Positions 41,724-64,000 of a DNA stretch of 64,000 nt are shown here, piece by piece. How positions within the stretch are numbered: position 1 is the stretch's first letter; each line of letters starts with the position of its first letter. This stretch comes from a phage, in assembly GCA_025832235.1 (NCBI GenBank), contig GCA_025832235.1_3649.1; one strand, written 5' to 3'. A model generated the notes under the pieces. The model saw only the letters and a list, made by a program, of their open reading frames with translations, was not told where the DNA came from and ran no database searches. Made by a program: the position numbers and the translations under genes.

Positions 41724-42423
41724 CACACAATATTAGCTGCCCGGCTAAAGTGCTGGAAGCACCTATAACACATCTTTCAACTAAATTTCCTACCACCACA
41801 ATCACTTACCTCCCATACATGACTGTTTGCTTGTTTAGTGAGCAGTCATGCCTTGACATTCTTGCCTATCCTGATAAAATTAAGTTCTTCTCTTTTCTTT
41901 TACCGAGTAATTCGGGTTTTCTGTTCTCTTCGGTTTGAAGGGGTATGGAGATACACCTGAGTGAACAGGGTGAACAACCGAACCATTGGCTATGGCATTA
42001 GCATGGCGAAGCGGACGGGTGACGAAAGAGGGGCCGGAGGACACCAGTCACTGCCATATGATATATGGGTGATAACCTGAAGAGTCTGAATAAGTGTTTA
42101 AGTACCAGTCAGAGGAAAAGGTGAATGGTAGCCGAAGGGGGAGGGGGGTTTCTTGTATCTTTAATTTGTATATTATGTATACACTTGTAAACCAATTTCA
42201 TCTGAATCTGTTTACCACACAAAGTGGATAGAGACAAATATTACCTATTAAACTTGAATTATTTATAGAAAATACCACAACACCACTTAAGTCTTTGATT
42301 TTACACACAAATCTTACAGATATTCAACCTCCATATTTAACATACCTGTAACATATTCCATACTCTACCTGTCTGATCAATCTACCCAACCACATCCTTC
42401 ATATTTTCCCTGTCTGTACCACC

Positions 42424-42635
42424 CCTGCCCCGCCGGGAGTCCCGTCATATCTGGCTTTCCAGCAAATATCACACCCACAAATATCATTGCCTGAAGAGGG
42501 TTTCATCCCATAATACATGCCTTACCTGAAGAGCGCTTCATACACCACGTAAATTTTTTAATTGACCTGCAATTTTCCCGTCATGACCCCCTGCCCCGCC
42601 GGAGAGGTTGGCTTTTCCCACACAGACCTGAAGAG
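42424..42635. repeat. imperfect ~110-bp direct repeat pair plus four CCTGAAGAG copies
   Basis: CCTGCCCCGCCGG at 42424 and 42588; CCTGAAGAG at 42076, 42490, 42525, 42627. Confidence 0.6.
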
Positions 42636-43213
42636 TCAGCCAGAAATATCTGAACAGGCCCAATTCTACCACGATTTTGACCTGACCTACAGGAGTGCTG
42701 CCAGGCGGACGAAATGGGAATACTTCTCATTCTTATAACAATTCTCAAATATCAAGGCAGTGAGGCAAATTAATAGGCTAGGCCGTTCACACAGTGGCAC
42801 AACATTTGCAATCTATTTTGTGTGGGGGAATGAGAATACATATCATTGTGAGAACCATTATCATTACGGGCAATTTAACATAATACCCATTATGCGCACC
42901 ACTGGCGATACATACAGGGATTGATAACATGAGTTACTGTTTACGCATATAACAATTATATTTATTACTATTTGTGTGGGATATAGTTAGCAGCCGATAG
43001 ATTAGATATTGACCTGCGGACTTCTGACCGTCTAGACGTCTAAACGCCCACACAGCAAGGGTTATACATACATCGCTGAATGTAAACAGGGCCGCAAAAA
43101 TGCTACCATACCAGTTTGTAAATTTTCAATGCAGCACTTGACAAAGAGGAGAAAAACTTGTCTGACACCTTATACACTTTCGATACAATAACGACTGTTA
43201 TTATTTCATGTTT

Positions 43214-43300
43214 CACTGTTCACGTATAGATTGTTCCCGCATAGACTGTTTACGCCTGGATAGTTTACACCTTGACAGTTTACGCATAGATGATAAGCCA
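43214..43300. repeat. iteron-like tandem series of 15-16 bp repeats
   Basis: TAGAtTGTTcCCGC / TAGAcTGTTTACGC / TAGTTTACAC / GACAGTTTACGC in tandem. Confidence 0.6.
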
Positions 43301-43544
43301 TGCCATTCGTTTGCATGAAAACAATTAGCAAGTTAACAATTAACAAGTTAATAATATATGACATAATATAAAAGCAGGGCAACTATTATTAGATCTATAG
43401 TTGCCTTGCTTATTATGTCATGATTAACTGAATATAAGGCAACTATGATCTGATTAATAGATTGCAGACAAACTATCACGGGGGTGATGGTTACTGCTTT
43501 TATATTATGTCGCGACTCCGTCGCGCCATGCCATTCGTTTGCAT
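43297..43544. repeat. 20-bp perfect direct repeat GCCATGCCATTCGTTTGCAT flanking a nested palindrome cluster
   Basis: copies at 43297-43316 and 43525-43544; between them 18-bp perfect inverted repeat GACATAATATAAAAGCAG (43360-43377 / 43494-43511) enclosing GGCAACTAT/ATAGTTGCC palindromes. Confidence 0.65.
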
Positions 43545-44156
43545 AGTTGCCTTATTGTTACAGGTAAAACAATTACATTGTTAACTATTTCTTATCTTTC
43601 TCTTAGTCATCTAATGATTCCAGTCAGTATAGTTATGTGCAGTAAACATTAGACGACTAAAGATTTCTCTGATTATAGTAACCTATCGTGACAATTTCGA
43701 ACTGTTTACGAAAAATGTTGACACCTGGGCAGGTTTATGTTATGCAGTTTGTACGAATAATTATTTTGTACAGGTATTGACTATTCCGTTATTCTGTGGT
43801 TGGAATAAATACTTTGCAGGCTATAGAATGGTGATCGTACGTGGATTCTGAGATCTGTCGGCTATAGTTACACCCGATTTTTCACGTAGGACACGCTTTT
43901 TGGTTTGTGTAAGTGTATGACTTATAAGGGTTTTTAATTGTTGACAGTATACTGAAGATGTGCATCAGGTTAAATTTTGTGCAATAGCTGCATTACGTGC
44001 AATTTTGGGAGAGAAAACGGGTAAAAATAGCACCGCTACCACACAATGAAAGGTTATGCAATAGCTATTTTACATGTATATTTGTACAGTGTGCGGGATT
44101 GATGGCTCGTCAATTATTCCACTTGTCAGGTAGGGCCGTTTATGGTAGGAAAAGAG

Positions 44157-44184
44157 CAAACAAAAAGAAAGGGGCCTAAGCCCC
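44157..44184 (-). terminator. rho-independent terminator ending the minus-strand block
   Basis: minus strand GGGGC-ttag-GCCCC then TTTCTTTTTGTTTG. Confidence 0.6.
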
Positions 44185-44198
44185 TTGATAATGTTGTA

Positions 44199-44462
44199 TT
44201 ATTTGTTGCTCATCCAGTTTTCCCAAGCTGCCTGATAATCTGCCTCACTGCGGCGGATCTCTTCTTGTTCTTCAAGCCGGATCTCTTCTTCCAGGTACCC
44301 AAGGATGTCGGATTTTTTGGTCTGGCGTAACATCCAATCATCTTTTTTACGAGTAAAGATCTTGTACGCTTTCTCGCAAACCTCTTTTTTACTACCTTTT
44401 TGTACTTCAAGAACTTTGTAGGCCATGTACTGAACTAGTTTGAGCTGATCAAGACGTTTCAT
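44199..44462 (-). CDS. hypothetical protein
   Basis: AGAGGT RBS; 5' UTR hairpin GGGCC-AAAA-GGCCC upstream. Confidence 0.5.
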   Translation of the reverse strand: MKRLDQLKLVQYMAYKVLEVQKGSKKEVCEKAYKIFTRKKDDWMLRQTKKSDILGYLEEEIRLEEQEEIRRSEADYQAAWENWMSNK

Positions 44463-44522
44463 GATGTTTACCTCTTTATGCGGTTCTGATTAGTGGGCCT
44501 TTTGGCCCGTGTCATTATCTTA

Positions 44523-44795
44523 TTACTTATGGCGGCAGAATTCAAGCGTTTTTAATTGATAATCTTCCTCAGCCTGGAGTACGACCGCCTCGATCATTTC
44601 GTTGGCATTGTTAAAGCCATAACCTTTAGCGAAATCATCCGCGCCACCTTCGTGATCATGTTCTGCGTTCATCGCTTCCACAAAATGGAATTCAAGATTA
44701 TTGAGGTAAGGGCTTGATGTTCCGTCCTCTTTTTCGATGAGATTCCAAATAGCATTAAAACGTGATTCGACTTCTTGATTAATCCAGCTTGACAT
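44523..44795 (-). CDS. hypothetical acidic protein
   Basis: AGAGGAAA RBS; upstream hairpin and TTGACA-17-TAACAT promoter (44849-44877). Confidence 0.5.
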   Translation of the reverse strand: MSSWINQEVESRFNAIWNLIEKEDGTSSPYLNNLEFHFVEAMNAEHDHEGGADDFAKGYGFNNANEMIEAVVLQAEEDYQLKTLEFCRHK

Positions 44796-45005
44796 GATGT
44801 TTTCCTCTCTTCTGGTTGTTGTGTGGGCACTTTTGCCCCTTCAAGATAATGTTACCCCACCCCCTGGCAGATGTCAACGGTTTTTATAGTTCTTATATGA
44901 CAGGCAGGCCCGGTGATTGTCTCCACCCGTCGCCAGGTGCCTGCCGTGTAATAAGTATAACAAAAAACAGGACCATAGCAAGCCCTGTTTTGTAGTTTAT
45001 AAATA

Positions 45006-45197
45006 TTATATTTTTTCGCCTATGTAGTCCGGTCGGTTTTTCTCTGTCATGCGCTTTAGCAATTCTTGCATGTTACTTATGGCTTGTAGCGTATCCTCTT
45101 CCAGACTTGAATCAACATAATCAGGATCGTCTATAACCTTTCTATGATTATGATAACGCAGTACCGCCAATACCTTTCTAACTTGTTCGGTATTCAT
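45006..45197 (-). CDS. hypothetical protein
   Basis: ORF. Confidence 0.4.
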   Translation of the reverse strand: MNTEQVRKVLAVLRYHNHRKVIDDPDYVDSSLEEDTLQAISNMQELLKRMTEKNRPDYIGEKI

Positions 45198-45346
45198 TTT
45201 TATCGCTCTTTAAAACAAGGTGCCAACCGTTTCCAATAGATCACTGACTATCAGGACAATACTGATCAGCACATACCTAACCATAAAGGGAAAGATCGCC
45301 AACATTGCCGCCACGATTCCCATGGTGATAATTATCTTTCTCATGA

Positions 45347-45631
45347 TTAACGGGTCACGTAAGTTTTCCCGTTTACGGTTATCTGCAGATCCTCCAGGTC
45401 TGGATCTTCTTTAAGGTCGCGAGCAAGCTCACCGCACCGGATACCCTCGAATCCGTAGTACTCTGTTGTACCGTCATTAAAAGTTTTAGCGGCAAGGCAT
45501 AAGCGATAAGTAACCCCGATTTGATTGACGGCATGAATATCCGTTAGATTAACCTCTTTTGCCAGCTCTTTAGCCATTACAGGCGCATTAAGTCCAACAA
45601 CCAGGGCAACCACTGCGATCATCTTTTTCAT
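45347..45631 (-). CDS. secreted small protein with cleavable signal peptide
   Basis: MKKMIAVVALVVGLNAPVMA then mature domain; AGAGGA RBS. Confidence 0.5.
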   Translation of the reverse strand: MKKMIAVVALVVGLNAPVMAKELAKEVNLTDIHAVNQIGVTYRLCLAAKTFNDGTTEYYGFEGIRCGELARDLKEDPDLEDLQITVNGKTYVTR

Positions 45632-45722
45632 TGTGTCTATCCTCTTTCTGCTACGTTTAAGGCGGCGGTAACCGCCTGTTTAAGCTTTGTTGGTTAATTT
45701 TCGGGTATCGGTATAAATTAAA

Positions 45723-45938
45723 CTATGCTGTACGCTCAACTATAACAACGGTTTGGGGGATCTCCCCCTCCACCACTAGTAAGGCCTTTTTCTGCGTGAT
45801 AGATATCTTTACCCGTTGCAGCGTGGCGGTGAAGTCTTTCATTTCGTCACGCGGTGTTTTAGTGCAGTACCAGATCTCAGGCTTGCCGATCTGTAAGTTG
45901 CGTAAAAATTCTGTTTTGCCTGTTTTGTTAGTGATCAT
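45723..45938 (-). CDS. hypothetical protein
   Basis: GGTGAGG RBS. Confidence 0.45.
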   Translation of the reverse strand: MITNKTGKTEFLRNLQIGKPEIWYCTKTPRDEMKDFTATLQRVKISITQKKALLVVEGEIPQTVVIVERTA

Positions 45939-45947
45939 TTGTCAACC

Positions 45948-46052
45948 TCACCCGATACCGTTGGAAGACAAGATCACATTAGCCATGGTTGCAATCAGGC
46001 CAATACCCAGGGCAATAACCAGGATCACCGCATCAATTAATTTCTGTTTCAT
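45948..46052 (-). CDS. 34-aa membrane peptide
   Basis: AGAGGAAAACAAA then ATG; IDAVILVIALGIGLIATMANVIL; below ORF-track cutoff. Confidence 0.4.
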   Translation of the reverse strand: MKQKLIDAVILVIALGIGLIATMANVILSSNGIG

Positions 46053-46142
46053 TTTGTTTTCCTCTTCTTGTTCCAGGTGGCGGACCATTCCACCGCCTTA
46101 TGTATTATGCTTTGTAAGATGGTTGTTTGTTTTCAAACTATT

Positions 46143-46322
46143 TTAACGATAATCATCGTACGCTTTATTAACCTGGCGAATATAACATTCAAAAGCCAGA
46201 TCAATAGATTTATATTCACGGATATACTCACCATAGGAAACCACATACATTTCTATAGCTTCCTCATATGCGAGGAGAATAGAATCCAAGCCTACGATCT
46301 CAGTCTTTGCAATAATAGCCAT
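46143..46322 (-). CDS. 59-aa hypothetical protein
   Basis: AAAGAGGATAAAAATC then ATG; below ORF-track cutoff. Confidence 0.45.
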   Translation of the reverse strand: MAIIAKTEIVGLDSILLAYEEAIEMYVVSYGEYIREYKSIDLAFECYIRQVNKAYDDYR

Positions 46323-46393
46323 GATTTTTATCCTCTTTGTGGTTGGTGGGGCTTGCCCCTTTGATTTATATACTACAGTCTTATATGGTCATG

Positions 46394-46627
46394 TCAACTA
46401 TTTTCAAAAAATTTTTCTGCTGTAATATTTTTCCCGGTAGGGTTCGCTACTTTCAAAATTCTATCATGCACCGGACGCCCAAAAGAATAAGCGCCGTACA
46501 CAGTAAACCAATAATCGCCGTCAGGCTGTACTATTACCGCCGCATATGGTACGCCTTTTTCGTTTTTGCTGACAAAATAGATCACATTGCCATTAATAAC
46601 CTCAGCGCGTTTAATTTGTTCCATCAT
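46394..46627 (-). CDS. hypothetical protein
   Basis: AGAGAGGT RBS; upstream hairpin GGGGCC-GAAAA-GGCCCC. Confidence 0.5.
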   Translation of the reverse strand: MMEQIKRAEVINGNVIYFVSKNEKGVPYAAVIVQPDGDYWFTVYGAYSFGRPVHDRILKVANPTGKNITAEKFFENS

Positions 46628-46681
46628 GATGATTTACCTCTCTTTATTTTCATAATTGGGGCCTTTTCGGCCCCGCCAGGT

Positions 46682-46966
46682 TTATTTATTGATAGCGTGC
46701 AGCGGGAAAGCTACGCCAGGTTGATAGATAACCTTTACAACCTCATCAGGACAAAAGAAATTGCAGAACTCACCGCAATAGGCCTCATCCTCTTTTAATT
46801 CTTCATCAGCATACTCAAAAAAGTAGTCGATGCTTGGATAATCCTGCCCTGGGTTATAGTCAACCATTGTCAAGACCAGTTCAAGATCGTTGCGCAGGAT
46901 ATGCATACCCGCTTTTAAGTATTTTGCTTCCATTTCTACTACATCGCCAGCGGTAACAATAGCCAT
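46682..46966 (-). CDS. hypothetical acidic protein
   Basis: start moved to ATG 46966 after AGGAG. Confidence 0.45.
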   Translation of the reverse strand: MAIVTAGDVVEMEAKYLKAGMHILRNDLELVLTMVDYNPGQDYPSIDYFFEYADEELKEDEAYCGEFCNFFCPDEVVKVIYQPGVAFPLHAINK

Positions 46967-47188
46967 AGTTTTAACTCCTGTTTCTGTTAATGATTGGGGG
47001 CCGCCCCCTGACACGTACTATTATCCATATTGTAGGGCTTGATGCAAGTACTTCTTTAAAAAAATTTTTAAGCGCCTTGGAGGCCGTTGTAACGCCAAAA
47101 TAATAAAGGCCATGCGGTTGCATGGCCTTTATGTGATTATATCGCTGTAGGCCCTGCTAGGGGCCTTATTTTGCATCATTTGCCGGAA

Positions 47189-47494
47189 CTATACAGAGAA
47201 AACATCGTTCACAATAGCGATCACAATGCCGCCCACCTTGTCACGGTCAACAATGCACAAATCACCATAGATCATGTGGTAGTCTGGATGATCTTTCACG
47301 GAATAGTCAATGAGCGTTTTCTTGTCGTCCAGCTTTGTAACTTCCATTCTCATAACGATATGAGAATCATCAAAGGCATTATTCCGAAAAGTCATAGCCT
47401 GACCACCAGGGCACCCAGTGATCTCCACTTCCACACCATCTACGATCTGACCATCAAAGAAATAAAGATTATTAGCCTGGATAAACATGATCAT
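47189..47494 (-). CDS. hypothetical protein
   Basis: AAGGAG RBS; 45-bp repeat copy upstream. Confidence 0.5.
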   Translation of the reverse strand: MIMFIQANNLYFFDGQIVDGVEVEITGCPGGQAMTFRNNAFDDSHIVMRMEVTKLDDKKTLIDYSVKDHPDYHMIYGDLCIVDRDKVGGIVIAIVNDVFSV

Positions 47495-47534
47495 TACTCC
47501 TTGTTAACTGCGTGGTATTTTAACAGGGTTTAAA

Positions 47535-47579
47535 TTTACTTTATTGATGGCCCTAGAGTCAAGGCCATCTAAAAATAAA
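47535..47579 (-). repeat. 45-bp repeat copy 1 (promoter-like element with hairpin)
   Basis: minus strand TTTATTTTTAGATGGCCTTGACTCTAGGGCCATCAATAAAGTAAA; TTGACT sits in the loop of GATGGCC/GGCCATC stem. Confidence 0.55.
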
Positions 47580-47581
47580 TT

Positions 47582-47782
47582 TTACAGGCCTACAATCTCT
47601 TTGATTCGTTTAACCGCCGCCTCAGCGCCTTGGGGGTAAAAATTATGGTAACCAATCACGCGAGTGATACTAATCGCCGTTTGATGATCTTCATAGTCGC
47701 CCTTGAAGATTTCTTGACCGTCAATCAGCACGGCAATTTTTTCTTCTTTTTTGAAGTTAATAACGCGGATATTGTTGCTCAT
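47582..47782 (-). CDS. hypothetical protein
   Basis: ORF; upstream hairpin GGGGA-aaca-TCCCC. Confidence 0.45.
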   Translation of the reverse strand: MSNNIRVINFKKEEKIAVLIDGQEIFKGDYEDHQTAISITRVIGYHNFYPQGAEAAVKRIKEIVGL

Positions 47783-47884
47783 TTTTGTTTCTCCTTTCTG
47801 GTTTTTGTGTTGGTGGGGATGTTTCCCCGTTGATTGTTATTATCCATATTCAGGACCGGATTGCAACACCCCGGAAGAAAAATT

Positions 47885-47920
47885 TTTTGAAAAAAGTTAG
47901 GCCCCCAGGGATCGGGGGCC
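47885..47920 (-). terminator. rho-independent terminator
   Basis: minus strand GGCCCCC-gatccct-GGGGGCC then TAACTTTTTTC. Confidence 0.6.
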
Positions 47921-47924
47921 GTTA

Positions 47925-48044
47925 TCAGTTACTTACAGAGATAAAATACATCCCTACGCCTAACAATATTTCAAGGGCGATGATCTCAAGCCATACCATA
48001 ACACGGCGCACCTTATCGGTGCGGGGCTTATCCTTGGGTGTCAT
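47925..48044 (-). CDS. 39-aa membrane peptide
   Basis: GGAGGGAAGGGGGAGACG then ATG; MVWLEIIALEILLGVGMYFI; below ORF-track cutoff. Confidence 0.45.
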   Translation of the reverse strand: MTPKDKPRTDKVRRVMVWLEIIALEILLGVGMYFISVSN

Positions 48045-48286
48045 CGTCTCCCCCTTCCCTCCTGGTAGTAGTGACGTGGTTTACAATGGCCCCCAGGAGT
48101 ACCATCACCACGCACATCACAAGAAAAATTATCTCCGCTGTTGTTCGATCCATTGTTATAAAATTCCTCAAGATCAGGCCTGAAAATAAAGCGTTCGTTA
48201 TTGAATCCGTCACGCCAGGCGGCTGGCTTCAAATCTTCACTAAAGGGATTAATTAACGTGGCATTATTTAAACGGTTGGCCCACAT
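48041..48286 (-). CDS. hypothetical protein (frame uncertain)
   Basis: ATG after GAGAGGAA; overlaps the peptide gene; alternative frame 48028-48153 encodes a TM peptide. Confidence 0.3.
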   Translation of the reverse strand: MWANRLNNATLINPFSEDLKPAAWRDGFNNERFIFRPDLEEFYNNGSNNSGDNFSCDVRGDGTPGGHCKPRHYYQEGRGRR

Positions 48287-48635
48287 ATTTTCTATTCCTC
48301 TCAAATAGGCGATCCGCCTCAGTTAAACATATCTCATGGGCTTGATCTCTGGTTTTAGCTTCATCGAAAACTTGTTGTGCAAGGCTGCAACGCAAGGAGA
48401 CCGGAAGATCACTATAATAGGCGTTGACAAACGTTTGAGCGTCGTACAGGTCTGAAAATACTTTACCCTTTCTATTATTCCCCTTGTCAACAATTGCAAG
48501 GATAACCAATACAATAGTTGCAACCACCCCCAGGAAAATAGATATAATAAACCATAAAAAGGCGGATCTACCCATCTTGCCAGCGATCCAGGCGTTAAAC
48601 AAGGCAACCAATACAGCCAAAATAATAAATTCCAT
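48264..48635 (-). CDS. membrane protein (two TM helices)
   Basis: start moved to ATG 48635 after AGAGGT; MEFIILAVLVALFNAWIA and FLWFIISIFLGVVATIVLVILAIV. Confidence 0.5.
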   Translation of the reverse strand: MEFIILAVLVALFNAWIAGKMGRSAFLWFIISIFLGVVATIVLVILAIVDKGNNRKGKVFSDLYDAQTFVNAYYSDLPVSLRCSLAQQVFDEAKTRDQAHEICLTEADRLFERNRKYVGQPFK

Positions 48636-48699
48636 TCTATGTACCTCTTTTGCAGTTCTGTTTAACAATAAGGCGGCAAATATGCCGCCTGTTACCTGA

Positions 48700-49080
48700 T
48701 TAAAAATTATCGCCGTAAATCTTTCCGCTTTCTGCCCACACCACCACGCGGGGCATACTATCCCACACGTCTTGTTTTAGATTGAGCGCGTGCAATTCTT
48801 CGGTGGTGCCCATACCTGGCACGGGCTGATTGTATACTGCAAAACGACCACCCGCATAGTCATAGGCCAGAGTTAAATCACACTGGATCATCTTTTTGAT
48901 CATGGCATTAAGCATGGCATTAGCCGCATACTGATCACGTTTTAAAGGCAACTCTTTGATTAGTTTGCGATAGTTTTCAATGTGATCGCACACTGTTTCA
49001 CGTGGAAGATCTTTCATATCCTCGCGAAAGGTAACCAGGTTAAACATGACGGTGTCAATAGCTTTAGTAGTGTTTTTCAT
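48700..49080 (-). CDS. hypothetical protein
   Basis: start moved to ATG 49080 after AAGAGGAAAAC; upstream hairpin GGGGGCAA-gacg-TTGCCCCC. Confidence 0.5.
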   Translation of the reverse strand: MKNTTKAIDTVMFNLVTFREDMKDLPRETVCDHIENYRKLIKELPLKRDQYAANAMLNAMIKKMIQCDLTLAYDYAGGRFAVYNQPVPGMGTTEELHALNLKQDVWDSMPRVVVWAESGKIYGDNF

Positions 49081-49171
49081 GATGTTTTCCTCTTTGTTTT
49101 GTGTGGGGGGCAAACGTCTTGCCCCCTTGAGTTTTAATATAGCAGGTTTTTAGGTTATTGCAACACTTTAT

Positions 49172-49795
49172 TTATGAAAAAGTCATCTCGCCATATTCAT
49201 CCACATCAAACCGCCAATCATTGGCCTCGATAAGGCCGATCAGGTTTTCGGTAGTGAATTGTTCAAGATAGGCTTGCTCCAGGTCTACGTAAACCTTGCG
49301 GGATAGCTCCCGTACCGTCTCGGTGATCAGCTCTTCCAGCTCTTCAACTTTATCCTCTTGCTTGGTGGTCAGGTCTAGCCAATTGGTATCGATGCACCCG
49401 CCTATTGTGTTTTCGTGGTGATAATGGCTAAACGGGATACGCTCAACGCTTGCGGATAGCTCGCCATCGTGCATTGTGCCGAACAAGTGACGAATTGAGC
49501 GGAATTTAGTCAAAGACTTGACTTTACGCAAGAATTTTTCTAAGTTTACATTTTCAGCGCTAATTGACGCGCCGTCACCCTGGCACCAAAAGCCGGACCA
49601 ATGTACATCTGTATCTTCAAGCCCGTACTCTGGAAAAACATATTCTTTATAGTATTCAATTACACTTTCTGCAAAAAAGTTATCCCCGCTGTGTTCTTCT
49701 CTTTCGCGGACCATTTCAACGGCTTTTTCTTTTTGTTCGTCGGTCAGCACGTCGAAAGATAAATTGTAACCTGTGGTAATGTTAACGGTGGTCAT
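49172..49795 (-). CDS. hypothetical protein
   Basis: AGGAGA RBS; upstream hairpin and promoter. Confidence 0.5.
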   Translation of the reverse strand: MTTVNITTGYNLSFDVLTDEQKEKAVEMVREREEHSGDNFFAESVIEYYKEYVFPEYGLEDTDVHWSGFWCQGDGASISAENVNLEKFLRKVKSLTKFRSIRHLFGTMHDGELSASVERIPFSHYHHENTIGGCIDTNWLDLTTKQEDKVEELEELITETVRELSRKVYVDLEQAYLEQFTTENLIGLIEANDWRFDVDEYGEMTFS

Positions 49796-49852
49796 GATAT
49801 TTTCTCCTATTTTCTTTGTTGGTGGCGGGAAGTTTTCCCGCCTGTGTGTTTA

Positions 49853-49880
49853 AGTATACTTATCGAGATTTACTTGTCAA
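49853..49880 (-). promoter_or_regulatory. sigma70-like promoter
   Basis: minus strand TTGACA, 16 bp spacer, TATACT; followed by hairpin 49824-49842, RBS and ATG 49795. Confidence 0.55.
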
Positions 49881-50130
49881 CACTATTTTTTAAATTATTG
49901 TGGCGCAAAATGTTTAAAATCTCTTCAACGTCATCAACACGGCGGCAATTTTTAAACGCTACCAATTGCCCCATGATTTTAATCACTGGGCGGCCTTGCC
50001 AGTGCCCCTGAAGAAAGCGCGCCTTGACTTTATCGGTGGAACTATCACGCCACCAAATAGCCTTGTTGTTGCAGTAGTAAAAATTATTCAGGATAACATC
50101 AACTTTATCAAAATTTTTTAATTTACGCAT
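49870..50130 (-). CDS. hypothetical basic protein
   Basis: GGAGTAAACGCC then ATG. Confidence 0.5.
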   Translation of the reverse strand: MRKLKNFDKVDVILNNFYYCNNKAIWWRDSSTDKVKARFLQGHWQGRPVIKIMGQLVAFKNCRRVDDVEEILNILRHNNLKNSVDK

Positions 50131-50162
50131 GGCGTTTACTCCTTTCTCTCTTTGATGTGGTT

Positions 50163-50190
50163 AGTATAGCTAACCTGTTGACGATGTCAA
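50163..50190 (-). promoter_or_regulatory. sigma70-like promoter
   Basis: minus strand TTGACA, 16 bp spacer, TATACT. Confidence 0.6.
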
Positions 50191-50320
50191 TGATATTTTT
50201 AACGCCATAAAACGGCCCTGGGCGATGTTTTCAGGTTAAAGGGGGCGATTGCATAGGTGGGGGCCTTTTTGGCACTTACAGGGCCAACCAGGGGCGCTAT
50301 TCGTAGGATAGAAATAAAAA

Positions 50321-50350
50321 GCCCCGCACAATGGCGGGGCGTTGGTTGTT
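50321..50350 (-). terminator. rho-independent terminator
   Basis: minus strand GCCCCGC-cattgt-GCGGGGC then TTTTTATTTC. Confidence 0.6.
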
Positions 50351-50546
50351 ATTTGTCTTTATGGCGGTACCGTTCCGCCTGTCGTTCACGTTCCAAAAGC
50401 AGGCCCGGCAGTTTACGATCATAATGATTCCGCCAGATCTTCCCAAATCTTTTTGGCTTATTCAGTTTATTGTTCCGCTGGCGGCGTTCCGGCAGCTCTT
50501 CGGAATCATGAGATCGCTTTAAAATCTTTTCAAAATTAATCTTCAT
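50349..50546 (-). CDS. hypothetical basic protein
   Basis: start moved to ATG 50546 after AAGGGGGGAATAT. Confidence 0.45.
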   Translation of the reverse strand: MKINFEKILKRSHDSEELPERRQRNNKLNKPKRFGKIWRNHYDRKLPGLLLERERQAERYRHKDK

Positions 50547-50883
50547 ATATTCCCCCCTTGCTAACTTCAATATTGGCCTGAATAGCCCGGATACGGCGCT
50601 TTATAACTTCCTGATCTGTGTGATCGTATCCCCAAAAGTCTACAATTTTTGCGCCCCCAGCTTCCAGGCGGTACAGTGTTTCCTGCATTTTGTAAGCCGG
50701 GATCGGTCGCGGTGTTACTTGGTCACCTTCTTTATTTTTATACTTTATAATATAATCTTCATTATCGTTGAATGTCCAAAATGGATATTCTGCAAGGGCG
50801 GTACTTTCCTTTTTATCCTGGATCTTGTTTACAATTAAAGCCGTAGCAATAGCGCCAATAATAAAACTAGCCCCGCTGATCAT
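50536..50883 (-). CDS. membrane-anchored protein
   Basis: start moved to ATG 50883 after AAAGGAGAAAG; N-terminal TM ISGASFIIGAIATALIV. Confidence 0.5.
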   Translation of the reverse strand: MISGASFIIGAIATALIVNKIQDKKESTALAEYPFWTFNDNEDYIIKYKNKEGDQVTPRPIPAYKMQETLYRLEAGGAKIVDFWGYDHTDQEVIKRRIRAIQANIEVSKGGIYED

Positions 50884-50958
50884 GTACTTTCTCCTTTCAT
50901 TGTGTTGATAAACTATCTTTATAGATGGCCCTGCTACCAGGACCACCGAAAAACCAGC

Positions 50959-51204
50959 TTATTTGACGATACCGACAAAACAGATCCCGCCTTCCCCTAT
51001 ATAGGCGATATCGGTAATTTGATAATTTGTCAAGATCCGCGTGTTCAGATCATTAATAAAATCGGTCATCGCGTTGGTGTAGTTGTCTTCCGTGTCTAAG
51101 GCATAATCCCAGGTGTAAACCTTTTTACGTCCGAAGCCTTTTACCATGATACGGGCGCTTTTGGTGTTGGTAGGGGCATAATATTTGGTAATTAGTGCGG
51201 CCAT
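50959..51204 (-). CDS. hypothetical protein
   Basis: ORF; 45-bp repeat copy upstream. Confidence 0.45.
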   Translation of the reverse strand: MAALITKYYAPTNTKSARIMVKGFGRKKVYTWDYALDTEDNYTNAMTDFINDLNTRILTNYQITDIAYIGEGGICFVGIVK

Positions 51205-51247
51205 TGTTTTAACTCCTCTGTATTAGTTCAGTGTTAACAGTGTAAAG

Positions 51248-51292
51248 TTTACTTTATTGATGGCCCTGGAGTCAAGGCCATCTAAAAATAAA
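51248..51292 (-). repeat. 45-bp repeat copy 2
   Basis: identical to copy 3; one mismatch to copy 1. Confidence 0.55.
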
Positions 51293-51293
51293 T

Positions 51294-51635
51294 TTACTCG
51301 TTTTCTTCCAGTTCTGCAAGCTCTTCTTTCACTTCTTCAAGCTCTGTTTGCAATTCCTGGTATTCTTCATCGTCCTCAATATCCAGGCTGTCGATGTAGT
51401 CGCTAAATCCGCAGCGGTAAGCGATAGGATCTAACTCCTTGAGGATACGCGACGGAAGAAAAGAAATGTTTCCGATCATAATTTCGCCATAGATCTCGTC
51501 TAACCATTCATCATAGTTTTCGTCGTACTTGTCCTCGTCGATTTCAAAATTATCGATCTTGTTCTCAAGGTCTGCGATCTGTTTTTTCAGCGCGGCGATC
51601 TGCATGGCTTTTTCTGTGGCGGTCATAGTAGTCAT
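51294..51635 (-). CDS. acidic coiled-coil protein
   Basis: EE/DD-rich; promoter and hairpin upstream. Confidence 0.5.
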   Translation of the reverse strand: MTTMTATEKAMQIAALKKQIADLENKIDNFEIDEDKYDENYDEWLDEIYGEIMIGNISFLPSRILKELDPIAYRCGFSDYIDSLDIEDDEEYQELQTELEEVKEELAELEENE

Positions 51636-51686
51636 AGTGTTTTCTCCTTTTGTGTGCTTTGGGAAGTTTTCCCGTTTACGTGTTTA

Positions 51687-51714
51687 AGTATACTGATTTA
51701 AGTTAGCTTGTCAA
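51687..51714 (-). promoter_or_regulatory. sigma70-like promoter
   Basis: minus strand TTGACA, 16 bp spacer, TATACT; -10 region GTATACTTAAACAC nearly identical to promoter at 49853-49880. Confidence 0.55.
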
Positions 51715-51834
51715 TTAAAAGTTTAAGAAAAATTTTGCTACACCGTTGGCACTACCCATCAACATTTGCGCCAGGATGTAACCAATGATGCAAACGATAA
51801 TAGTTACCTTTGTGTGCTGGCGTGTAGTACTCAT
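51715..51834 (-). CDS. 39-aa membrane peptide
   Basis: AAGGGGG RBS; TIIVCIIGYILAQMLMG; below ORF-track cutoff. Confidence 0.4.
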   Translation of the reverse strand: MSTTRQHTKVTIIVCIIGYILAQMLMGSANGVAKFFLNF

Positions 51835-51867
51835 CTTTAAGCCCCCTTTCCGCTCAACTGTGGTTAG

Positions 51868-51912
51868 TTTACTTTATTGATGGCCCTGGAGTCAAGGCCA
51901 TCTAAAAATAAA
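51868..51912 (-). repeat. 45-bp repeat copy 3
   Basis: TTTACTTTATTGATGGCCCTGGAGTCAAGGCCATCTAAAAATAAA on plus strand. Confidence 0.55.
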
Positions 51913-51913
51913 C

Positions 51914-52309
51914 TCAGTAAGTTTTCAGTACTTTCCCGTCCAACCTGTCTAACTGAATCTCAATAGCTGCAGAAAACCTATTGTAAACCACATCGCCCAG
52001 GGAGTCCAGCCAATCTATGACGTTATACACCTGCTCTTTATTCTTGCAAGTCCGGATCCGTTTCATTACGTAAGACGGATCAATATTAGCGCTCTCGTTG
52101 TTGTGGTCATGCGCCTGGCCTGCTGCGCTAGTTATAGATTTTACAACCACCTGAAAGGGCTTTAAGGTGCCTTTTGCGTTCATCTCACGCGCTTTCGCGG
52201 CGCGGTTGTTGTATGTTACACAACGGCGGCAAATGTTGACCAAATGCATATCAATAATTTTTTCATCGTTTGCCAGTTCGTTCATGATGCGGCGTACGTT
52301 CTTATTCAT
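51914..52309 (-). CDS. hypothetical protein
   Basis: ORF; upstream hairpin GGCGGGAA-tgt-TTCCCGCC. Confidence 0.5.
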   Translation of the reverse strand: MNKNVRRIMNELANDEKIIDMHLVNICRRCVTYNNRAAKAREMNAKGTLKPFQVVVKSITSAAGQAHDHNNESANIDPSYVMKRIRTCKNKEQVYNVIDWLDSLGDVVYNRFSAAIEIQLDRLDGKVLKTY

Positions 52310-52405
52310 GATCTTTTTTCCTTTGTGTTGGCGGGAAACATTCCCGCCTTTTGTGTATAGTTTACTTGAATTTTGCAGCGTGTCAATAATTTTTTTTTTT
52401 TTTTT

Positions 52406-52804
52406 TTATTCGTGGGCACATGTTACAATGTGCTTTTTATATCCCAGGCGGTCAGCAAGTGCCGACAAAAACTCTTCTTCGTAGATCCAGCCGTCGGCAG
52501 TGATCCCCATAGCATTTAATGCGCTCTCAAGTGCTGCGTTAGCTTTATCATAACCGTGACCGCTCGCCTTGCCGCCAGTATAGCCGTACTTATTGTTCTT
52601 GTTGTCGTGTATCCAAAAAACGCAGTAGTGAGTGTTCCCACTGGCGGCGGCATAATACCGGATCTCAGCTACTTCGTGCAAATTATTGTCATCGTCCAGG
52701 CCCACCAGATTATAAGCCTTATAAAATCCACGATCACGGCGGCAGTTCTTGACATCAGAAAAAGAAAAGTCCGCATTGTCAAAATTAAAGGTAGTGGTTT
52801 TCAT
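52406..52804 (-). CDS. hypothetical protein
   Basis: AAGAGGA RBS; promoter TTGACA-17-TACACT (52837-52865). Confidence 0.5.
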   Translation of the reverse strand: MKTTTFNFDNADFSFSDVKNCRRDRGFYKAYNLVGLDDDNNLHEVAEIRYYAAASGNTHYCVFWIHDNKNNKYGYTGGKASGHGYDKANAALESALNAMGITADGWIYEEEFLSALADRLGYKKHIVTCAHE

Positions 52805-52868
52805 GATTTTATCCTCTTAGTGTTTTTTGTGCTTTTAGTGTATTTTGTGTCAGGCTATATGTCAATAC

Positions 52869-53066
52869 TTATTTTTTATTAAACCAGTGGTTGATCTGGC
52901 CTTTTGTCAGGGCGCAACGATTAAGCTGTTGCAGGGTATAGCTATGACCGCGACGAAATTTATAAAGGCCTTGCCCGTTGTTGATGGTTACATCCGCCCG
53001 GCAAATCACTTGATTGGTGACCACCTGGCGAGTGTTGCGACGTGCTTTGATTCCGTATGCGTTCAT
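52869..53066 (-). CDS. hypothetical basic protein
   Basis: ORF. Confidence 0.45.
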   Translation of the reverse strand: MNAYGIKARRNTRQVVTNQVICRADVTINNGQGLYKFRRGHSYTLQQLNRCALTKGQINHWFNKK

Positions 53067-53144
53067 GATTTCTTGTCCTCTCTGTTAATTAGTGGGGTGT
53101 TGTTCACCTTGCGAGAATAAGAATAACAAGAACTGTCCGAGCTG

Positions 53145-53327
53145 TCAACCATTAGTTAAAATTATTTTTTGGGTAGAATTCTCCAGCCGCCGCCCCTGCC
53201 AGGTTAACCACCGTTTTTCGTACTCTTCTTTATGTTCCAACGCTCCCGCCATAGCCTTTTCAACCAGGGCGATAGCCTCAGCGTCATTAATCGCTACATT
53301 TCCCAGGTGAGTAGCATTACCTTTCAT
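53145..53327 (-). CDS. hypothetical protein
   Basis: GAAGAGGAGG RBS; first gene of the small-gene block. Confidence 0.5.
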   Translation of the reverse strand: MKGNATHLGNVAINDAEAIALVEKAMAGALEHKEEYEKRWLTWQGRRLENSTQKIILTNG

Positions 53328-53528
53328 TTTTGTACCTCCTCTTCAATTGTTACCTATCCTATAGCATAGGCCCACCAGGTTTGCAAGCCTTCATTCTCTC
53401 CTACCTGGTCAGTTAGGCCCTGCCAGGCTGGCCCCGCCAGGTTGCAGCGGTCAGCGCATCAGGTTAGAAATTTTTTTTTTTGAAAAGTGTTGACAGCGGC
53501 CCCGCCAGGTGGCAAAATATACCTATCG

Positions 53529-53760
53529 AAAGGACGGCAGGCACCGGTGACGGGGGAGACAACCACCGGGGATGGGCGCTGCATAAAATGAGAACGGTTA
53601 TCATTATCATTTAAAAATTTATGCAAAAAAAAAAATCCTTGCTTTCTTTGTCCTGTGTGATACTATAATAACAAGCCGGGGCAACAGGGGCCGGGAGACA
53701 ATCACCGGGCCTGCCCGTTATTCTGCAAACGAGAATGATTATCATTCAAAATTCTAAATG
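53529..53760. repeat. tandemly duplicated ~90-bp noncoding unit
   Basis: both units contain GGGAGACAA(C/T)CACCGGG and GAGAA(C/T)G(G/A)TTATCATT. Confidence 0.55.
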
Positions 53761-53875
53761 AGAACTCCTCGCATTTAATAAATTTAATTAGCATGCTAAT
53801 TACCTTCCGTAACAATCTCCTATAAAATAGTGCCCCATAAAATATTCCCATATAGAAATTTTAAAAATCCATTTC

Positions 53876-54040
53876 TGAAAACGAAAAATCGATTTCGTCC
53901 CCAAAAATTTCAGGTCGAGAGCTGGAACGATTTCCAGAAAATCCGATTCAGAAAACGAAAAACAGATCGAGTACTGAGAAATTTGTCGAGAAAAATTTTC
54001 AGAAAATCAGGTCTTTGAAATGAAAAACAGATCGAGTACC
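53876..54040. repeat. three A-rich direct repeats GAAAACGAAAAA-CAGATCGAGTAC
   Basis: copies near 53876, 53946 and 54008 at irregular spacing. Confidence 0.5.
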
Positions 54041-54351
54041 GAAAGAGATGTGCCGAAACTTTCTGATAATAATGGACTTATTGTTATAAAAGGTCAGAGG
54101 TAAGCTGGGAAAGTTCTGGTAGAAGGGTGAGAGTATGTGCGGAAAATCTGGAATAGTGACTTAAAGTACGGTGCGAACGATAGAATGAGCAGCACATCTT
54201 ATCGTGCCTGTCTTGAAAAATCCATTTTAGTTTTCGATCCATTTTCTGATTTTCTAAGAATTTTAAAATATCTGGCCCGGTGAAATATCAAAAGGAGGAA
54301 ATCCATTTTAGAAATCCTCCTTACACTTGATATGCCAGGGATTTTCAAGTA

Positions 54352-54681
54352 TCAGCTGTCTTTGTTTTTAGGTTTGTACATGCGCAGAGGTATGGTCTTT
54401 GTAACATTCCATTTCCTCAACCCTTCCCAGCTCCAGTTGTGGGCGTGATACCCGGTTATGCATGCACTGCTGGCGTGATCATAAGCATAAGAGAACGCTA
54501 TGTGCACCAGGTGGGGCCAGTCCTTCCACGGCTGTGGACCGTAAGCCTTTCTCCAACACCGACACAAACTAATTGTCTCAAGAATAGGGAGAATAACAAT
54601 TCCATATACCACCACCAGAATGGTCAGTGCAATGATTGTCAGGAACACATACCCTGCAGTTGAAATGATGATCTCTGTCAT
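54352..54681 (-). CDS. membrane protein
   Basis: N-terminal TM IIISTAGYVFLTIIALTILVVVYGIVILPIL. Confidence 0.5.
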   Translation of the reverse strand: MTEIIISTAGYVFLTIIALTILVVVYGIVILPILETISLCRCWRKAYGPQPWKDWPHLVHIAFSYAYDHASSACITGYHAHNWSWEGLRKWNVTKTIPLRMYKPKNKDS

Positions 54682-63282: not shown

Positions 63283-63558
63283 CAATAGTTCAGGTAGGTC
63301 GTTAAGCTACCCCGCACCATTACGTGCATAGCCATACGTTTTCACGTAGGATCGGACCATCTCATATTCCTATGATAAGCAACCACAGGAATCCTCCCAT
63401 TTCGACCGCACTTGCTGGTCTACTTCCTTTCGGAATGGCCTCTGAGCGTTCGCTCTTTTGAGCGCTTCGTTGCGGATTACCTTGCCATAAGGTTTAGGCT
63501 TCCCGCAGTTAAAGAGGTTATTCGACATAGATTACTCTATGAAGCCACAATGTTATTT
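63283..63558 (-). ncRNA. group I self-splicing intron in DNA polymerase gene (no internal ORF)
   Basis: 5' exon ends CAU, intron ends G; elements ACUGCGGGAAGCC (P), GUAAUCCGCAACG (Q), GUAGACCAGC (R) and GAGAUGGUCCG (S); length restores frame. Confidence 0.7.
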
Positions 63559-64000
63559 ATGGTAATAAATAATACGACGAACACCTTCATCGTACCACCC
63601 ACGCTTCACCATCTGGCGGTGCATGAGTATTCCAACTAAGTCACACAGCGATGCACCACCATTTTGTTGGTATGCATTAAGTAAAGAGTGTTTAGATCTG
63701 GTCCAGATAGCATGACCATCAAAAGAGTAGATAAACTTCTTACCCGTTGCTTCCCAGAATTTCTCCAGATCTTCTTTACGCCCCTTAAGACCAGGGTTGG
63801 CATCCCAGAGTGCATCGATTACCCTTTGTCCCAACTCTGGAGAGATGTCCAGCATATCTGCAACTTTATCTTTTTGTGCCCCATACATAACCCCATACGT
63901 GATAGGTTTACCGTCGTTACGGGAAATCTCCTTGCCTGCTACAGAAGAGTAAGCTTTGGCGTTATTACAGTTACCGCACACTGCCACTTTACCATTCCTT
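63559..64000 (-). CDS. family A DNA polymerase, 5' exon (partial, continues beyond window end)
   Basis: motif B-like region ...AKAYSSV...YGVMYGAQ... and NAYQQNGGASLCDL; ends ...VRRIIYYH at the splice site. Confidence 0.7.

Follow-up and report, generated by a model that had tools for sequence, protein, structure and literature searches.

What is the function of a short motif that recurs in two large gaps between the genes of a bacteriophage and that reads there as a run of isoleucine codons? The question is raised by a stretch of phage DNA of 64,000 nucleotides (contig GCA_025832235.1_3649.1 of the assembly GCA_025832235.1), which we refer to as a whole as the window. A preliminary description had noticed a 16-bp motif shared by two non-coding hubs of the window and had offered two readings of it, namely protein-binding sites or leader-peptide-like mini-open reading frames (mini-ORFs), adding that sequence alone cannot separate the two. 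We found that comparative data do separate them, and that they favor protein-binding sites. It seems probable that the motif belongs to a DNA operator for the Fur protein of the host (the ferric uptake regulator, a repressor that senses iron), with one Fe2+-Fur dimer binding per 19-bp palindrome.

The palindrome and its sites

The 16-mer GAGAAYNNNTATCATT is present in four exact copies in the window, all on the plus strand, at 42832, 42850, 53590 and 53731, while the number expected by chance is 0.03 on average and none of 100 dinucleotide-preserving shuffles reached four. The last three of these positions had been given correctly in the preliminary description, and the first had been placed one nucleotide off, at 42831. 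The tandem arrangement claimed for each hub holds for hub 1, where the copies lie 18 bp apart, and does not hold for hub 2, where they are separated by 141 bp and belong to two different units of a module described below. The same description had named a lack of enrichment and of conservation as what would speak against the motif; the excess over chance and a search in relatives, in which the motif proved to be conserved, show that neither is lacking.

Relaxed matching and comparison with distant phages revealed that GAGAAYNNNTATCATT is a fragment of a longer element, the 19-bp 9-1-9 palindrome AATGAGAAT-N-ATT(C/A)TCATT, which is the consensus of a non-redundant set of 48 sites, drawn from the phage in the window and from its relatives. 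For scanning, a weight matrix was built from distant genera only, hence it is independent of the phage in the window, and a site was called strong at a score of at least 18. Exactly five strong sites were found in the whole window, accompanied by a weak sixth one, and in the complete 137-kb genome of a close relative (MG065647) the strong sites given by this matrix are confined to the same two clusters. The boxes of the window, none of which is assigned to a strand, are as follows.

42713-42731, no strand: Fur-type box AATGGGAATACTTCTCATT; score 21.6; no variation among 9 Vequintavirus genomes; its start is 9 bp from the genome's physical left end
42732-42750, no strand: tentative weak box directly adjoining the preceding one; core TTATAAC-A-ATTCTCA (7-1-7) at 42734-42748; three mismatches on the minus strand; below the matrix threshold
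42829-42847, no strand: Fur-type box AATGAGAATACATATCATT, holding the copy at 42832; score 21.7; arms invariant and position 12 alone variable in the 9 genomes
42847-42865, no strand: Fur-type box TGTGAGAACCATTATCATT, holding the copy at 42850; score 18.4; variation in the 9 genomes only at the centre positions 9-11
53587-53611, no strand: Fur-type box AATGAGAACGGTTATCATT, holding the copy at 53590; a second register, shifted 6 bp rightward, overlaps it (53593-53611)
53728-53746, no strand: Fur-type box AACGAGAATGATTATCATT, holding the copy at 53731; score 27.4 with the phage matrix
53757-53775, no strand: weak box AATGAGAACTCCTCGCATT; score 14.8; 29 bp past the previous box, a spacing typical of the arrays in other genera

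Fur-type specificity of the palindrome

A Fur site for a single dimer is a 19-bp inverted repeat of the 9-1-9 type (Chen et al. 2007, PMC2189734). The geometry of the phage palindrome equals that of such a site (core 7-1-7, TGATAAT-N-ATTATCA), and its half-sites vary independently, as in a palindrome of the dimer type. Box 53587 agrees with the classical Fur consensus at 16 of 19 positions, the best matches to this consensus being 16/19 and 15/19.

Whether the resemblance extends to specificity was assessed in both directions. When the phage matrix was run over 100 kb of Escherichia coli K-12, its top six matches fell at fhuA, fepD-entS, fepB-entC, map-rpsB, fepB-entC again and fepA-fes, and the score dropped from 13.5 to 9.0 after the sixth match. 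Five of these six are thus located inside four Fur-regulated promoter regions that make up 0.95% of the sequence (P ~4e-10). In the opposite direction, a host-only motif was derived from the four E. coli regions by expectation-maximisation with no phage input, using a background of intergenic composition and a fixed site fraction. It converged on AATGATAATCATTATCATT, and its best matches in the window were 53728 (the top one, 20.0) and 53593/53587, with 42829 within the top eight. Of the two overlapping registers, 53587 scored 25.0 by the phage matrix and 17.1 by the E. coli-only matrix, and 53593 scored 14.4 and 19.8, respectively. By the host-trained matrix, the phage boxes reach 17-22 bits versus 15-21 for the best host sites. 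The specificity of the phage sites, judged by this two-way recognition, is not distinguishable from that of established host Fur sites. In one case the agreement is almost literal: the site TATAATAATCATTCTCGTT in the E. coli fhuA promoter is the reverse complement of box 53728 over 15 nt, and the first 15 nt of the box are identical to it.

The one top match lying outside the four iron regions deserves a separate mention. The sequence ATTGAGAATCATTCTGAAT in the map-rpsB intergenic region of E. coli K-12 (L010 44582-44600) reaches a Fur-type score by both the phage and the host-trained matrices.

Taken together, the dimer-type palindrome, the independently varying half-sites and the specificity of a Fur operator support the protein-binding reading proposed at the outset. 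As a tblastn search found no Fur homologue in any rV5-like phage, the group to which the phage in the window belongs, the binding protein would be that of the host.

Genomic setting of the two box clusters

The phage in the window belongs to the rV5-like E. coli myoviruses (genus Vequintavirus) and is strictly lytic (virulent); phages of this group (SophiaRose, navn, rV5, FFH2, Gotham and others) are 92-94% identical to positions 42000-54500 of the window. Its genes occupy the plus strand as far as about 42 kb, and the minus strand beyond about 44 kb. Hub 1 is a large non-coding stretch, for which the only label in the paper on rV5 is ‘non-coding’ (PMC3606486), and hub 2 is a gap of about 1 kb separating two leftward early operons. 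In hub 2 we found two tandem copies of a module, about 135-140 bp apart, in which a near-consensus rightward sigma70 promoter is followed by a GC-rich 5' stem-loop (loop GAGACAAnCACC) and, after 6-8 nt, by a Fur-type box. The following elements precede the boxes.

53490-53518, plus strand: promoter P1, sigma70-type, TTGACA-17-CAAAAT with TG before the -10 and a T-rich upstream part; 10 of 12 consensus matches; first module unit
53525-53586, plus strand: leader A, GC-rich hairpin GGGAGACAACCACCGGG; repeat family D5; single-sequence fold z = -2.15
53639-53669, plus strand: promoter P2, sigma70-type, TTGCTT-16-TACTAT with an upstream TG; conserved across genera
53670-53727, plus strand: leader B, 5' stem-loop carrying GAGACAAnCACC as its conserved loop; 6-8 nt separate the end of its 3' arm from the first box

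The P2 module is 72-88% identical in Seunavirus (PVP-SE1), Certrevirus, Mydovirus, a Serratia phage, Phapecoctavirus (which is in a different subfamily) and an unclassified Aeromonas phage, and it is unannotated in the records of all these relatives. In Kashira, PVP-SE1, DU_PP_IV, KpS11, phiWec190, PhAER-3, L046 and L136, the -35 and -10 hexamers of P2 and their spacing are kept while the spacer sequences differ, which argues that the promoter is under selection. The stem-loop seems to be maintained as well, since 86% of the cells of its outer helix are paired, four of its six pairs are changed on both sides, and none of 500 shuffles scored as high; these counts are supportive only, because the helix was specified by hand from the same sequences in which the pairs were counted. 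Single-sequence folds of leader B gave z values from -1.3 to -3.5, RNAalifold on a MAFFT alignment of the leaders produced a weak consensus with no convincing structure, and Rfam, searched with both hubs at gathering as well as E-value thresholds, returned nothing relevant. It is conceivable that the promoter and the stem-loop may together specify a new phage non-coding RNA or a primer transcript.

The hairpin is followed by one to about eight boxes. The first of them occupies a fixed position after promoter and hairpin across subfamilies, and those that follow are mostly spaced at 29 bp, at which distance they do not overlap. Some relatives also have registers with a 6-bp offset like the one at 53587/53593, and in PVP-SE1, PhAER-3, L046, L136 and L139 the module has a single box.

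P1 and P2 point against the leftward early genes on both sides. All genes flanking hub 2 are on the minus strand, and they have no known function by Pfam, which returned only a weak Macro domain for them. A leftward terminator (53908-53871) closes the upstream operon, and no plus-strand terminator was predicted in hub 2. We also considered a leftward Fur-repressed small RNA, with a -10 element TAGAAT between the boxes and the hairpin acting as a terminator. This candidate was set aside, as other genera do not conserve its -10 while they do keep the rightward -35 and -10.

The transcripts expected from P1 and P2 would run through the boxes, and this raises the possibility that each palindrome acts as a hairpin in rightward RNA, serving as a signal for protein binding, processing or termination. 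The boxes do lie in a region that is predicted to be transcribed, and RNAfold draws hairpins for them. However, at positions 6/14 the two arms are complementary in 52% of cases versus 54% expected from independent half-sites, and 16 of the 48 sites have a G/A mismatch there. At every symmetric pair, complementarity among the 48 sites equals the independent half-site expectation, which means that compensatory changes are not in evidence and that there is no sign of selection for RNA pairing. Moreover, the boxes are not followed by a U-tract, the lack of a plus-strand terminator and of Rfam matches applies here as well, and the hub-1 sites are found in a different context. We thus consider an RNA function of the palindromes very improbable.

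Even less can be said for the second reading of the preliminary description, according to which the copies would be translated isoleucine-rich leader peptides sensing translation or tRNA status. Start codons and runs of ATT and ATC codons are indeed present at the copies. Nevertheless, the palindrome reads A-ATG-AGA-ATN-ATT-ATC-ATT, so that both the start codon (positions 2-4) and the isoleucine run are letters of the motif itself; ATG, GTG or TTG stands at positions 2-4 in 87 of 96 site-strands, on both strands. A Shine-Dalgarno core precedes just 5 of these 87, and the predicted peptides range from 6 to 98 amino acids with nothing conserved beyond the motif. A leader peptide with an attenuator consists of a short translated ORF that has a ribosome-binding site and conserved regulatory codons, followed by alternative terminator/antiterminator hairpins and a same-strand operon; we saw no such ribosome-binding sites as a rule, no attenuator structure and no same-strand gene downstream. 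As the start codon and the isoleucine codons are palindrome letters, Shine-Dalgarno cores are few and the peptides are unconserved, the mini-ORFs are, to judge from these comparisons, a by-product of the operator sequence, and we give their translation as leader peptides next to no credence.

The boxes of hub 1 have a different setting, which is that of the physical end of the genome.

42704-43162, no strand: direct terminal repeat of 459 bp; aligns end to end with the Gotham repeats at 1-459 and 136567-137025; holds the hub-1 boxes

The termini of Gotham were determined from sequencing reads (PMC7471380). All three strong boxes of hub 1 are inside the repeat, and in the 9 Vequintavirus genomes their arms are invariant, while the box centres and the neighboring flank vary; a search of viral contigs for further copies of hub 1 gave one contig, and four more relatives were added individually. 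We found no convincing promoter overlapping the hub-1 boxes and no alignment of hub 1 outside of the genus. Klebsiella Mydovirus contigs have a second box cluster in the equivalent terminal non-coding hub, the sequence of which is not alignable to the window. In KPP-1, whose 514-bp terminal repeat was mapped by coverage and PhageTerm (PMC9862379), one strong box is inside the repeat and four more (two of them strong) are within 600 bp to its right. As far as these genomes indicate, the conserved trait is a box cluster in the terminal hub and not an exact position beside the end. That the box located 9 bp from the DNA end might protect or mark the terminus became less likely in view of KPP-1, where the boxes are found toward the opposite side of the repeat and past it.

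Several further features of the two hubs were noted on the way. The repeat starts with GGCGGAC in the window and with GACGGAC, as mapped, in KPP-1. In both, its right end is just past a TTGACA-AAGAGGAG-like element, and thus a promoter may straddle the boundary between repeat and unique sequence. There are five copies of ACTGTTTACGCATA-like 14-mers (43215-43288, 42936 and 43701), three of which are placed at an exact 30-bp spacing to the right of the repeat and have an iteron-like look. Also to the right of the repeat, in non-coding sequence, an exact 20-bp direct repeat GCCATGCCATTCGTTTGCAT occurs at 43297-43316 and 43525-43544, 228 bp apart. A second motif common to both hubs is GC-rich; as GGCCCCGCCAGGT it is present four times in hub 2 (53369-53514), one copy being in the spacer of P1, and as CCCCTGCCCCGCCGG it has two exact copies in hub 1 (42422-42436 and 42588-42602). 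Three degenerate tandem units of 65-74 bp (…GAAAACGAAAAACAGATCGAGTAC…) at 53851-54054 lie to the right of the Fur-type boxes and overlap the leftward terminator. The annotated ORF 198 of rV5 (DQ832317; L001 12995-13273) spans the promoter-hairpin-box module on the opposite strand, and it is probably a spurious gene call.

Outside the window, a tandem TTTGTAAAGAnTTGTAAAGA is located 10-40 bp upstream of the module -35 in Seunavirus, Mydovirus, Phapecoctavirus and Kashira (L003, L004, L007, L008, L112, L140-L145); it is absent from the window. Distant genera have, in addition, a small plus-strand ORF about 200 bp upstream of the module, amid leftward genes. It comes in two sequence types, one in Kashira/phiWec190 and the other in PVP-SE1/KpS11, and it has no counterpart in the window, where the duplicated module is found instead.

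L003 1028-1294, plus strand: small ORF upstream of the module
L008 1074-1340, plus strand: small ORF upstream of the module
L004 1097-1279, plus strand: small ORF upstream of the module
L007 1071-1256, plus strand: small ORF upstream of the module
L006 1208-1402, plus strand: small ORF upstream of the module

Elsewhere among the leftward genes of the window, a group I intron (Rfam RF00028, 64.7 bits) was detected at 63333-63568 on the minus strand. About 20 GenBank records named ‘Campylobacter phage’ (MG0656xx, UNVERIFIED; e.g. MG065647; sequences L131-L133) are 90-93% identical to E. coli Vequintavirus, and their names probably reflect mislabelling or contamination.

Operator or decoy, and comparison with known systems

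A number of observations weigh against an operator for host Fur. First, the hub-2 boxes are situated about 55-75 bp downstream of P1 and P2, beginning some 55-65 bp past the start sites predicted for them, and clear of the -35 and -10 hexamers at which Fur usually represses; none of them overlaps -35, -10 or +1, an overlap that is typical, though not strictly defining, of Fur boxes. Second, no plus-strand gene follows the boxes. Third, the 29-bp non-overlapping arrays are unlike host operators, which have registers offset by 6 bp (PMC2189734). Fourth, the host-only matrix has a low information content of 10.7 bits, and several unrelated AT-rich sites score high with it too. Finally, at position 6 the phage sites favor G (with C at 14), while E. 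coli sites favor T (67% T versus 9% G in the host-only matrix).

The last point in particular invites the suspicion that the palindrome merely looks like a Fur box and is in fact the operator of a DNA-binding protein encoded by the phage, or of another host protein. Such a view might draw on the systematic difference of G6/C14 versus T/A in E. coli sites, on the co-occurrence of the boxes with a phage-specific promoter-hairpin module conserved across genera, and on the fact that most genes in these phages have no known function. We thus looked at the G6/C14 form itself. In a search covering one genome per species, the perfect G6/C14 palindrome was found in at least 120 bacterial genomes. From a sample of 20 genomes, whose ORFs were called crudely, 30 neighboring ORFs were tested; Pfam gave an assignment for 14 of them, and 8 of the 14 were iron genes: two for TonB-dependent receptors, one each for FecR, FTR1 and an Fe2+ transporter, two for Fe3+-type binding proteins, and fur itself. 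The G6/C14 form thus marks iron genes and fur in bacteria unconnected to these phages. The same palindrome is also present in many unrelated viral contigs, and the 15-nt match to the fhuA site would be hard to reconcile with a mere look-alike. As the phage boxes and the E. coli Fur sites are each found by the matrix of the other, and as the bacterial contexts point the same way, a phage-encoded or other binder is improbable. The boxes of KdgR, IclR and ArgR, considered as further look-alikes, were discarded as well, since both the cross-recognition tests and the inner core AAT-N-ATT indicate Fur.

If the boxes do bind Fur of the host, what would they bind it for? One possibility is a decoy, in which the boxes would titrate Fur off the host operators and thereby induce iron uptake and iron sparing for the benefit of the phage. 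It is a point in its favor that the phage boxes equal or exceed the best host sites in strength, that up to about eight non-overlapping boxes at a regular 29 bp would allow dimers to bind independently, that there is no regulated gene downstream, and that placement in the terminal repeat doubles the number of boxes per genome. One virion DNA has about 8 strong boxes (three per terminal repeat and two in hub 2), and relatives with long arrays have more; a replicating genome, going by general figures for copy number and Fur abundance, would present hundreds of copies. The Fur titration assay, in which multicopy Fur boxes derepress host genes (PMC2189734), can be counted for a decoy too. On the other hand, several relatives have a single box, and a pure decoy has no need of a first box that is fixed after promoter and hairpin across subfamilies. 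For these two reasons we favor a cis-regulatory link over a pure decoy, and we find titration as the explanation of the boxes rather unlikely. The long non-overlapping arrays, the near-consensus strength of the boxes and the absence of a visible regulated gene nevertheless speak for a possible part in titration, and the two roles are compatible with each other.

For an operator with a cis-regulatory role, the following scenario is possible and is offered tentatively. In iron-replete cells, Fe2+-Fur dimers would occupy the boxes, those in hub 2 standing in the way of RNA polymerase that comes from P1 and P2, and would block or limit the rightward non-coding or antisense transcripts, as well as whatever the terminal-repeat region does. 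Upon iron scarcity, Fur would leave the boxes and the rightward transcripts would extend, so that early phage development would depend on the iron status of the host. In a wider and more doubtful interpretation, the conserved module of strong promoter, structured 5' leader and box array might constitute, along with the boxes in or near the terminal repeat, a family-wide iron checkpoint of virulent rV5-like and phAPEC8-like phages, which would either read the host iron status, by Fe2+-Fur gating of antisense or primer transcripts and of early development, or rewrite it, by Fur titration with sites better than those of the host, which would induce host iron uptake.

Such possibilities may be of practical interest, as rV5, PVP-SE1, relatives of phAPEC8 and Klebsiella Mydovirus are widely used for biocontrol and therapy. 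If Fur binds, infection should depend on iron availability, a dependence of relevance to the gut, which is iron-limited, and to infected tissue; these phages may, alternatively, reprogram host iron uptake through Fur titration. A Fur-operator reading would also explain two unannotated ‘non-coding’ regions and remove several spurious small ORF calls. Full-text literature searches, incomplete in coverage, on Fur boxes in Vequintavirinae or rV5-like phages, on Fur in connection with lytic phage genomes, and on transcriptomes of the phages in question brought up nothing relevant except the Fur box of the sit operon in lambdoid prophages (PMC6969025), and thus we regard Fur boxes in these phages as provisionally unreported.

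The Fur box as such is well known. It is a textbook element of bacterial iron genes and has been described on a few prophage cargo genes; what appears to be new here is its presence as a conserved core feature of strictly lytic phages, in their core non-coding hubs and terminal repeat and in regular arrays behind a conserved leader. The enterobacterial boxes of fhuA, fepA-fes, fepB-entC and fepD-entS share with the phage boxes the 19-bp 9-1-9 form, a consensus that is the same at 17-18 of 18 specified positions, mutual recognition by weight matrices, the 15-nt match of fhuA and, in the pair 53587/53593, a host-type 6-bp register offset. The phage boxes differ in that they reside in a virulent phage, next to no iron gene, downstream of a promoter, in 29-bp arrays and with G6, and in that one cluster is inside a terminal repeat.

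The sitABCD operon of lambdoid coliphages is Fur-regulated cargo on a temperate phage (PMC6969025). In cargo of this type, a host Fur box is likewise found on phage DNA; however, the box overlaps the promoter of one accessory prophage gene, whereas the phage in the window is strictly lytic, has no cargo gene at its boxes and carries them in core non-coding regions that are conserved across subfamilies. The stx1 gene is further Fur-regulated cargo of temperate phages. Lytic cyanophages carry NtcA and PhoB boxes at promoters of protein-coding phage genes, and these would likewise be lytic phages reading the nutrient status of the host through a host regulator; the regulator and the nutrient are others there, and the boxes described here form arrays behind a non-coding leader or lie within a terminal repeat. 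Finally, the iterons of plasmid and phage replication origins resemble the phage boxes as regularly spaced protein-binding repeats in a non-coding hub, near promoters and other repeat families, but iterons are direct repeats, adjacent to an AT-rich unwinding element and bound by an initiator that the replicon itself encodes, while the phage boxes are palindromes with the specificity of host Fur.

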